Positions 54,956-55,724 of a DNA stretch of 64,000 bases are shown here, in pieces (positions within the stretch are counted from its first letter, which is position 1; every line of letters begins with the position of its first letter). Both the position numbers and the translations under genes were made by a program. The notes below the pieces were generated by a model. That model had not been told where the DNA came from, ran no database searches, and was given only the letters and a program-made list of their open reading frames with translations. Source of the DNA: Akkermansia muciniphila. Its GTDB lineage: Bacteria > Verrucomicrobiota > Verrucomicrobiia > Verrucomicrobiales > V1-33. The DNA is taken from contig CAMDJM010000019.1 in the NCBI GenBank assembly GCA_945900785.1, positions 1,041 through 65,040 of the forward strand. The letters run 5' to 3'.

Positions 54956-55038
54956 CGAATCCATCAAGCTGGAAAAGACATTTAGGGTATTTTTCCAGAG
55001 AACCCATTCGCGTTTATTCGCGTTCATTGGCGGTTAAA
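54956..55038. repeat. Palindromic repeat copy 1 (left arm truncated); overlaps the 3' end of the GxxExxY gene
   Basis: CGAATCCATCAAGCTGGAAAAG...TTCCAGAGAA.CCATTCGCGTT.ATTCGCGTTCATTGGCGGTTAAA, shared with copies 2 and 3. Confidence 0.9.
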
Positions 55039-55427
55039 CCTGCTTCCAAAATGACCCGTTTCACTTCGAGTTTGGCGTGCTTGAAGTTGATGATAAGGCC
55101 GAGCGGGAGGCCGGTCACGCGCAGGTAGTTGAGCATCTGAGCCAGTTCGTAGTCAGTGATGCGGTCGATTGTTTTCGTGTCCACGATGATGCTGCCGTGA
55201 AGGATGAGGTCAGGAATGAACTCGCCGACGCGGCAGCCTTTGTAATCGACGGGGAAGCGCGGCTGTTGGTCGTAAGAGATTTTGCGGAGGCGGCATTCCA
55301 CCACCAATGCGTTCTCGTAAATTTTTTCGTTCAGGCCGTTTCCGATCGTGTTGTGCACTTCCATGGCGGCTCCGGTGATGGCATAAACTTCATCTTTGAA
55401 AAGTAGTGGTTTTGGGAAAAAGGCCAT
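55014..55427 (-). CDS. GxxExxY protein (PD-(D/E)XK-like fold)
   Basis: AMEVHNTIGNGLNEKIYENAL; Q.RFPVDYKG..VGEFIPDLI; AQMLNYLR...GLIINF. Confidence 0.9.
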   Translation of the reverse strand: MAFFPKPLLFKDEVYAITGAAMEVHNTIGNGLNEKIYENALVVECRLRKISYDQQPRFPVDYKGCRVGEFIPDLILHGSIIVDTKTIDRITDYELAQMLNYLRVTGLPLGLIINFKHAKLEVKRVILEAGLTANERE

Positions 55428-55547
55428 GCGTTTTTTAATTAACCGCCAATGAACGCCAATGAACGCGAATCCATCAAGCTGGAAAGGGCTTTTGTGGGAT
55501 TTTCCAGAGAATCCATTCGCGTTGATTCGCGTTCATTGGCGGTTAAA
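55422..55547. repeat. Palindromic repeat copy 2 (~126 bp, with a 108-bp hairpin)
   Basis: Perfect 18-bp inverted repeat TTAACCGCCAATGAACGC (55439-56) / GCGTTCATTGGCGGTTAA (55529-46), inner CTGGAAA...TTTCCAG stem; contains the GxxExxY start codon. Confidence 0.9.
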
Positions 55548-55603
55548 TCCTGCCATTTTTCTTTTTCGTCCCTGAAAAGCAGGGACTTGCGGAAGTCGGC
55601 CAT
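55548..55603 (-). pseudogene. Internally deleted remnant of a second GxxExxY cassette
   Basis: Reads MADFRKSLLFRDE-KEK-WQD(LTANERE) versus the intact MAFFPKPLLFKDE...EAG(LTANERE). Confidence 0.65.
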
Positions 55604-55724
55604 GCGTTTTTTAATTAACCGCCAATGAACGCCAATGAACGCGAATCCATCAAGCTGGAAAAGACATTTAGGGCATTTTTCCAGAGAATCCATCCGCGTT
55701 GATTCGCGTTCATTGGCGGTTAAA
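55598..55724. repeat. Palindromic repeat copy 3
   Basis: Near-identical to copy 2 at a 176-bp period; same 18-bp terminal inverted repeat (55615..55723). Confidence 0.9.

Follow-up and report, generated by a model that had tools for sequence, protein, structure and literature searches.

Introduction

Among described systems, the closest to the locus treated here is the REPIN-RAYT pair (REPIN, a hairpin-forming doublet of repetitive extragenic palindromic (REP) sequences; RAYT, REP-associated tyrosine transposase). In such systems, cognate palindromic repeats stand on both sides of a single small gene of nuclease/transposase type, hairpin doublets of the same repeat that lack the gene are scattered through intergenic regions, a genome may hold several gene/repeat types side by side, and the gene is vertical, at a fixed site and under purifying selection; long vertical persistence of RAYTs under such selection was reported by Bertels and Rainey (PMC3116915, PMC3337134). 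The present analysis concerns a 64,000-nucleotide (nt) stretch of an Akkermansia muciniphila genome, hereafter the window (G000:C19:1041-65040, on contig CAMDJM010000019.1), in which a gene of the GxxExxY family (PF13366), encoding a putative PD-(D/E)XK nuclease, lies among long palindromic repeats and shares these traits. This locus represents a widespread gene-plus-repeat module in a copy that is specific to its lineage and partly duplicated, and the chances are about even that the module works like a REPIN-RAYT pair equipped with a different enzyme. It differs in encoding a nuclease of about 125 amino acids (aa) of the PD-(D/E)XK type (PF13366) rather than an HUH Y1 transposase (PF01797), in having arms of three helically phased heptamers instead of one short REP palindrome, and in its low copy number (4 places).

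Two further kinds of element invite comparison. Intervening sequences of 23S rRNA that bear an open reading frame (ORF) of family PF05635 are known from Leptospira and Coxiella; as here, a small ORF lies within long terminal inverted repeats, inside a transcription unit and without an obvious promoter of its own, and the PF05635 genes of the present genome carry analogous inverted arrays of other words. The window locus, in contrast, is situated between tex and a fragment of an extracytoplasmic function (ECF) sigma factor gene, not in an rRNA gene, and its ORF belongs to PF13366. Palindromic elements resembling miniature inverted-repeat transposable elements (MITEs), such as Correia elements, Rickettsia palindromic elements and bacterial interspersed mosaic elements, share with it intergenic palindromes of about 100 nt with conserved ends, variable middles and a low-to-moderate dispersed copy number. 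Unlike these, the palindromes described here have a specific small nuclease gene as regular cargo or partner, and neither a target-site duplication nor a DDE transposase was identified.

Architecture of the Locus

The window belongs to a 5.08-Mb assembly of 172 contigs (60.7% G+C, 86% complete). An earlier note on this DNA had placed a GxxExxY gene amid long palindromic repeats, in the order repeat, gene, repeat, spacer, repeat; profile matches and direct reading bear out the gene and its setting. Read along the minus strand, tex is followed by repeat copy 3, a 68-nt spacer, copy 2, the 137-aa ORF, a truncated copy 1 and the ECF sigma ORF, so that the order stands as described, while the spacer measures 68 nt between arms rather than the 50 then given and is a gene remnant. 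The features are as follows.

55014..55427, minus strand: GxxExxY/PF13366 PD-(D/E)XK nuclease gene, 137 aa, with the domain at residues 12-126
55439..55546, no strand: repeat copy 2, 108 nt and a complete hairpin, adjoining the gene on its upstream side (inverted-repeat detection, folding, period 10)
55439-55470 and 55515-55546: arms of copy 2, three 10-nt units each, around a 44-nt loop with a small inverted repeat of its own
55547..55614, minus strand: gene remnant (second copy) lying between hairpin copies 3 and 2 (direct repeat and sequence reading)
55615..55723, no strand: repeat copy 3, 109 nt and a complete hairpin, some 70 nt past the tex stop codon (inverted-repeat detection, folding)
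54956..55037, no strand: repeat copy 1, truncated, with one arm (55006-55037) and the loop, the other arm missing
55518..55694, no strand: 177-nt polymorphic unit consisting of half of copy 2, the remnant and half of copy 3 (comparison with lake metagenome contigs)
55795..58143, minus strand: tex, 782 aa, with Tex_YqgF, Tex_N, HHH and S1 domains, the upstream neighbour of the cassette on the same strand
54510..54824, minus strand: truncated ECF sigma factor ORF, 104 aa, downstream of the cassette, with Sigma70_r2 as its sole Pfam match

The 32-nt arms of copies 2 and 3 are 91-94% complementary, perfectly so over the terminal 18 nt (TTAACCGCCAATGAACGC / GCGTTCATTGGCGGTTAA), and each arm consists of three 10-nt units with the core CGC[C/G]AAT and the terminus TTAACC; Tandem Repeats Finder reported a period of 10 with 2.7-3.1 copies in all arms. 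Folded as single-stranded DNA, copies 2 and 3 reach -37.1 and -34.6 kcal/mol (z -8.7 and -8.0), values that none of 200 shuffled sequences matched, and copy 1 reaches -10.8 kcal/mol (z -1.5, not significant). Of the repeats that had been described, two thus stand as complete hairpins of about 108 nt with perfect 18-nt ends, the third being partial and unfolded. Copy 1 has the same orientation as copy 3, with which it shares 93% identity (loop identity 0.93 direct versus 0.53 inverted). As the note had stated, the downstream repeat supplies the end of the protein: the arm of copy 1 contributes the last approximately 11 codons, including LTANERE, together with the TAA stop, in place of which copies 2 and 3 have TCA. 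The ATG, by contrast, was wrongly assigned to the upstream repeat; it sits 9 nt outside the hairpin, though within the duplicated unit. The brackets are themselves complete hairpins, with their GGTT/AACC arm termini towards the gene. No sigma-70-like site was found ahead of the gene in a promoter scan, and the Rfam scan of the hairpins returned nothing above threshold, with sub-threshold matches to microRNA-precursor models only. A terminator role of the hairpins was rejected, there being no T-run after them on the gene strand.

The succession of hairpin, small ORF and hairpin recalls an integron-like cassette array in which the hairpins would be attC sites and the gene would be moved by an integrase encoded elsewhere. 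Integron gene cassettes with attC sites, such as the Vibrio VCR arrays, likewise show small promoterless ORFs alternating with imperfect palindromes of about 100 nt, and the attC-like end words pointed out in the note are formally present (RYYYAAC matches, GTTRRRY with one mismatch); they are, however, short and degenerate, and stand at the ends of a palindrome built of subrepeats. The best score for the integron-integrase model TIGR02249 in this 86% complete genome was 76.5 bits against a cut-off of 265, and 14 of 14 control genomes matched likewise below the cut-off. Pfam scans at E<=1e-5 covered 31 of the window's 33 longest non-overlapping ORFs with a length of 110 aa or more (14 of the 31 were without any match), and no recombinase and, in agreement with the note, no integrase or transposase family was found among them. 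Where integron cassettes are diverse and accompanied by IntI and attI, this locus has neither, holds one gene type together with its own deleted remnant, and keeps the same position after tex in four species; its palindromes are arrays of tandem 10-nt units that recur, with other words, around 104 of 128 GxxExxY genes. The integron analogy drawn earlier is therefore abandoned, its probability being close to negligible.

Gene-Array Association across the Phylum

PF13366 is a very common family of small proteins: among 301 genomes sampled from the phylum, 166 carry it, in 1-12 copies per genome. Each locus was scored by the best inverted repeat between the 170-nt flanks of the gene, with a threshold of at least 14, and controls of the same geometry were displaced 800-1100 nt from the gene. 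Among the first 29 loci, all from different genomes, 24 reached the threshold, compared with 0 of 116 displaced controls; over all scored loci, the proportion was 104 of 128. The 128 loci comprise this first set and 100 further ones (one flank was too short, and one earlier locus was dropped as truncated); the further loci had flanks of 300 nt only, and the displaced controls are thus limited to the first 29. The linkage between the repeats and GxxExxY genes that the earlier note had proposed to look for is thus present at most loci of this sample.

At least three recognisable units, of the form C-R-C-N-R-A-N or CAGGAT, occur at 91 loci. When a bracketed class is defined by inverted repeats no more than about 200 nt from both gene ends, with at least three C-R-C-N-R-A-N units at a period of 9-11 nt, the window locus falls within it (CGCCAAT / CGCGAAT x3, period 10). 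The AACC end is distal to the gene at 86 of the 91 classified loci (typical) and faces the gene at 5 (inverted, as here). Complete hairpins stand on both sides of the gene in three of the 86 typical loci, and in the protein subclade of the window each bracket is a complete palindrome of about 105 nt. The hairpin-gene-hairpin layout recurs at locus L150 and around a paralogue on contig C26 of the congeneric genome G002. This paralogue (L097, G002:C26:44000-45600) is 74% identical, carries an in-frame TAA and lies between two complete 80-nt hairpins, which are built of CACGGAT/CACGAAT units and not of CGCGAAT.

The Encoded Protein

The protein matches PF13366 (PDDEXK_3; E 1.1e-35, 122.9 bits versus a cut-off of 22, profile positions 2-117 of 117) and TIGR04256 (GxxExxY; E 5e-38, 130.1 bits versus 35, positions 2-116 of 116) over practically the whole length of both profiles. 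The AlphaFold2 model of the 137-aa chain has a mean predicted local distance difference test (pLDDT) value of 90.6, and its fold matches (Z 8.1-5.0) are, among those listed, almost all PD-(D/E)XK nucleases; the best are Cas4 SSO0001 (Z 8.1) and 3ijm (7.6), and BpuSI, SwaI, BglII and Hjc (6.5) also appear. Catalytic residues are retained, with E34, D73 and K85 invariant and position 83 occupied by D, where most members have E. A sequence search of solved structures with the protein gave nothing at E<0.5. The protein is accordingly modeled as a compact PD-(D/E)XK nuclease with intact catalytic residues and no close solved relative. A homodimer prediction scored 0.00 against a mark of 0.42, a result that bears neither way. 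A full-text literature search outside subscription journals, with PMC8934634 and PMC3424549 among the papers matched, turned up neither an account of the repeats nor a function for GxxExxY.

Nature of the Arms and Specificity of the Heptamer

Comparison of the paired arms within single elements, over 90 loci, showed agreement at 92.5% of core columns (1693/1830) and at only 58.8% of inter-core spacer columns (237/403). Mismatches read on the sense strand comprise 101 G-U and 128 A-C pairs (p 0.086; 31 loci versus 35), that is, no wobble excess. In an alignment of 19 full hairpins, 90.0% of cells pair, compared with 88.6% after column shuffling; double changes affect 17 cells against 11.4 expected, a value reached in 7 of 500 shuffles, and among the core positions the variable fourth is left unpaired most often. 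Since the cores are conserved, the spacers are not and wobble bias is lacking, the arms appear to be mainly inverted arrays of a word repeated at helical spacing, and they carry mainly the signature of putative protein-binding sites rather than that of a stem kept for its own sake.

These figures bear on the possibility of an RNA-level module comparable to an rRNA intervening sequence, in which the arms would pair in a tex read-through transcript, RNase III or a similar enzyme would cut the stem, a small mRNA would be released or stabilised, and the insert would be rendered harmless in operons. Such a module would suit the position of the cassette 5-70 nt after the tex stop on the same strand with no promoter-like site ahead of it, the strong folding of the hairpins and the analogous inverted arrays that flank the PF05635 genes of the genome. 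However, the lack of a wobble excess, the poorly matching spacers and the pairing barely above the shuffled level, with a variable core position that is often unpaired, all weaken it and tend to set the locus apart from the 23S rRNA intervening sequences; for a plain stem, a heptamer in triplicate at helical spacing would be superfluous. We regard this alternative as quite unlikely.

Specificity was followed on a tree of 92 proteins. The seventh position of the motif changes 3 times on it (shuffled mean 33.4, minimum 28); among the other core positions, 2, 4 and 5 change 16, 21 and 16 times, 1 and 3 change 2 and 4 times, and 6 does not change. The G-type forms one clade of 55 rows, and the A-type is nested inside the T-types. 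Of the 17 genomes with two or more labelled loci, 11 carry at least two position-7 types. It is thus the gene clade, and not the host, that the word follows, which points to the encoded protein as its reader; with 3 changes, this is suggestive only. Alignment column 23 holds N with T and K/R with A or G, amounting to about 2 events, with 4 exceptions among the 21 T-type rows. One locus (L114, G136:C12) has hybrid arms, with CACGAAT units upstream and CACGAAA units downstream, and its protein lies within the A-type clade.

Locus History in the Genus

The genus comparison covered 11 genomes, namely the present one (G000) and ten relatives (G001-G010). A hairpin-gene-hairpin arrangement directly follows the tex stop in G002, G006 and G009, as it does in G000, with proteins 88-91% identical. 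G005 keeps only a degenerate arm remnant at the tex site, and the remaining six genomes lack the cassette and have different neighbours at this place. Against its orthologues, the gene shows a ratio of nonsynonymous to synonymous substitution rates (dN/dS) of 0.041-0.084 at dS 0.58-1.23 over 126 codons; it is vertically inherited at one site under strong purifying selection. The C-terminal tail read from the repeat runs in different frames in different species (LTANERE, GLNRE), and is therefore a run-on rather than conserved protein.

Between species, the left arms are 87-97% identical, the loops 52-77% (upstream) and 34-86% (downstream), and synonymous sites differ at 40-60%. The downstream loop of G002 is the reverse complement of the upstream type (77% vs 48%); an inverted downstream loop is suggested in G006 and G009 at the loop edges only, and all three copies of G000 are direct. 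The hairpins are often preceded by T-rich and followed by A-rich sequence that extends the palindrome, and no direct duplication was seen in these flanks.

Two further cassettes of the genome, on contigs C26 and C87, could be followed in the same way. Of the C87 cassette, an arm remnant is left in G006 and G009. The C26 site, which lies before pheT, holds a GxxExxY cassette in G000, G001, G002, G003 and G007; in G006 (L076) and G009 (L077), it holds an unrelated gene of about 155 aa followed by the right-arm terminus of the cassette. At the same site, only a remnant of the right arm is left in G008, and G010, a genome too diverged for ends to be defined, shows a plain spacer of 80 nt. The content of this site (L055) has been exchanged at a conserved arm.

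Duplication and Polymorphism

Positions 55389-55503 and 55565-55679 form a direct repeat of 115 nt at 84% identity. The remnant has retained a 9-nt leader, the ATG, 13 codons from the 5' end and, running into the next arm, the final codons, with the gene interior deleted; the spacer and adjoining leader repeat the gene start (MADFRKSLLFRDE vs MAFFPKPLLFKDE), and an 84-aa ORF spanning the remnant has no Pfam match. Since the spacer repeats the first 13 codons and the last codons of the gene, it is a second gene copy without its interior, and the array, with unit spacings of 509 and 177 nt, is therefore a lineage-specific tandem duplication. The combination of a full copy and an internally deleted copy occurs at two more GxxExxY sites, that on C26 of the same genome and the C87 site in G002, where the duplicate includes about 45 nt of host flank. 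From an ancestral cassette presumably ending in inverted whole hairpins, the array may have arisen when the identical arms flanking the gene recombined unequally, which would have duplicated the 509-nt unit of hairpin and gene; one of the gene copies would then have lost its interior, leaving the 177-nt spacing, and the last hairpin would have been truncated.

The duplication is still polymorphic in lake metagenomes. A contig of run X2, from another study (2013 nt, with 7 differences over 1011 nt), joins 55517 to 55695 without the 177-nt unit, and in a second lake metagenome (run X3) 55520 is joined to 55697; in one run, a 10-nt unit is gained behind 55005 and another is lost at 55620. Among the contigs of four DNA runs, no hairpin-to-hairpin joint across the gene was found, which has no bearing on excision because contigs drop rare variants.

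These variants amount to active slippage and unequal crossing-over, as would be expected if the repeats were passive, that is, slippage-prone microsatellite-like arrays beside a conserved gene, spread by recombination and without a functional tie to it; solo one-sided arrays, such as the 13 units at 58150-58252, also exist. Such arrays would not, however, be confined to the gene in the way seen above, with controls 800-1100 nt away never reaching the score (0/116), nor would four of the seven core positions change only 0-4 times on the 92-row tree and the seventh be clade-specific. Conservation of the arms far above that of synonymous sites across species tells in the same direction, and passive repeats are a very unlikely explanation.

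Gene-less Hairpins and Other Genes with Inverted Arrays

In its own genome, the CGC[GCT]AAT doublet pattern of the window occurs at 4 places: this locus, C12 (a full hairpin), C8 and C84, the last three of which are not near a PF13366 gene. The repeats are thus not unique to the locus, as the earlier note had allowed that they might be. The genome carries 4 PF13366 genes, two of which (on C26 and C87) have CACGGAT arrays as brackets; around that on C27, no bracketing array is visible. CACGGAT-type loci number 31 in this genome, four of them flanking the two cognate genes, and relatives have 10-25 matches each.

The hairpin family of the window was searched for in 40 relatives, ten of them of the same genus, and was found in 8 of the 40 and in 5 of the ten; these genomes are kin, and the match counts of genes and hairpins are not independent. 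The 19 full hairpins aligned, 17 from five relatives of the genus together with copies 2 and 3 of the window, are conserved in their arms and variable in their loops. No hairpin matches were obtained in five members of the genus that lack a cognate gene (at least 74% identity), and G003 has 2 matches without a cognate gene.

The complete CGCGAAT-type hairpin on C12 (L057, G000:C12:29500-33000) is situated in the spacer between the second and third of three tandem YrlA (Y RNA-like) genes at positions 1500-2046 of that locus, one of which scores above the Rfam gathering score (69.9 bits) and two below. A tRNA reading of this neighbourhood was rejected: ARAGORN found none, and the sequences are YrlA RNAs.

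The three strong PF01797 (Y1 transposase) genes of the genome are not flanked by arrays of either hairpin family. One PF01797 gene (L213, G000:C66:25675-28046) is flanked by a G+C-rich inverted repeat of about 85 nt, unrelated to the heptamer arrays, and may be a separate REP/RAYT-type or IS200-type element. The three PF05635 genes of the genome, L215 (G000:C72), L216 (G000:C111) and L217 (G000:C42), have inverted short-word arrays of their own, with GTTGAT-, GGGAAAT- and GAACGTT-type words and inverted-repeat scores of 23.5-31.5, in the same packaging as the GxxExxY genes. Directly upstream of the tex start codon, 58150-58252 holds a one-sided array of 13 tandem copies of an 8-nt unit (GGGAAATN), and a similar word forms the inverted arms around the PF05635 gene on C111. 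On the other side of the cassette, the ECF sigma ORF contains region 2 only (TIGR02989 positions 2-89 of 158, 98.4 bits versus a cut-off of 124.55); it stops 70 nt ahead of a DUF1501 gene and looks truncated.

A Proposed REPIN-RAYT-like Module Weighed against a Host Nuclease

The analogy to REP/RAYT systems made in the earlier note is supported in part, by the association of gene and array, the clade-linked motif and the dispersed gene-less hairpins. On the even-chance reading that the module works like a REPIN-RAYT pair, we infer binding, cleavage and propagation or mobility as follows. Several nuclease protomers would bind the phased heptamers on both arms, bring the arms together and nick or cut at the arm ends; cutting would maintain or propagate the palindromes, with gene-less hairpins as non-autonomous copies served in trans, and the gene itself would stay at one chromosomal site and be inherited vertically.

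A number of observations weigh against this reading. In the only published classification found, the function of PF13366/GxxExxY is given as unknown (PMC3424549). The link between motif and clade comprises only 3 changes and has no power as a test of co-evolution; with so few, it is not statistically separable from co-inheritance of linked DNA, which explains part of it. The topology of the window, with gene-proximal AACC ends and the gene between complete hairpins, is a minority variant. The gene shows fresh-looking damage in two of the four species (an in-frame TAA in G002 and ATG->AGG in G006), and the copy number of the hairpin family in the genome, at 4 places, is very low. G005 has 17 hairpin matches and no cognate was found in it (genome 68% complete), and G006 and G009 keep 10-21 CACGGAT-type matches after deletion of both cognate genes. 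None of the four sites examined (tex, C87, C26 and the solo hairpin of G009, whose flank was not alignable) offers a clean empty site; those that the earlier note suggested seeking in relatives between tex and the ECF gene did not turn up, the six cassette-less genomes having other neighbours there.

Strong purifying selection and strict vertical inheritance fit an ordinary host function equally well, and a host-serving nuclease with operator arrays is a rival of real weight. Here, the enzyme would act for instance in repair, restriction-like defence or nucleic-acid processing, the heptamers would be operators for itself or a partner, nothing would be mobile, and the duplications and gene-less hairpins would be by-products of recombination. 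Inheritance at one site with a dN/dS of 0.04-0.08, a low copy number (4 genes and 4 hairpin places in the genome), conserved cores with unconserved spacers, as for protein-binding sites, and the failure to find empty sites are all in keeping with it. It accounts less readily for the recurrence of one bracket design at 104 of 128 loci in unrelated neighbourhoods, for up to 12 copies per genome and several motif types in one genome, and for gene-less palindromes that are dispersed with conserved arms and free loops (31 CACGGAT-type loci here, 10-25 matches per relative); repeated decay and internal deletion of copies are, furthermore, typical of selfish DNA and not of a regulon. For these reasons, the host-serving nuclease is considered rather unlikely, though it is the foremost of the alternatives to a REPIN-RAYT-like module.

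Implications for the GxxExxY Family

A broader proposal, put forward tentatively and with somewhat less than even expectation, is that a large, undescribed class of bacterial palindromic repeats has GxxExxY nucleases as its dedicated partners and that the two together constitute a second, HUH-independent REPIN-like replicator system, in which nuclease copies of about 125 aa would read phased heptamers, a few residues would set the last base of the word, and gene-less hairpins would be propagated or policed. If the replicator reading is true, the window would lend itself well to testing, offering complete hairpins, a duplication polymorphism that is still live and orthologous loci in four species. 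Were the nuclease to read its own flanking arrays, thousands of orphan genes would gain a role and a widespread class of intergenic palindromes would be explained. A non-HUH enzyme would then be added to the few systems that sustain populations of repeats in bacterial genomes, and a short modular word with a clade-specific last base would provide a tractable model of how small nucleases gain specificity.

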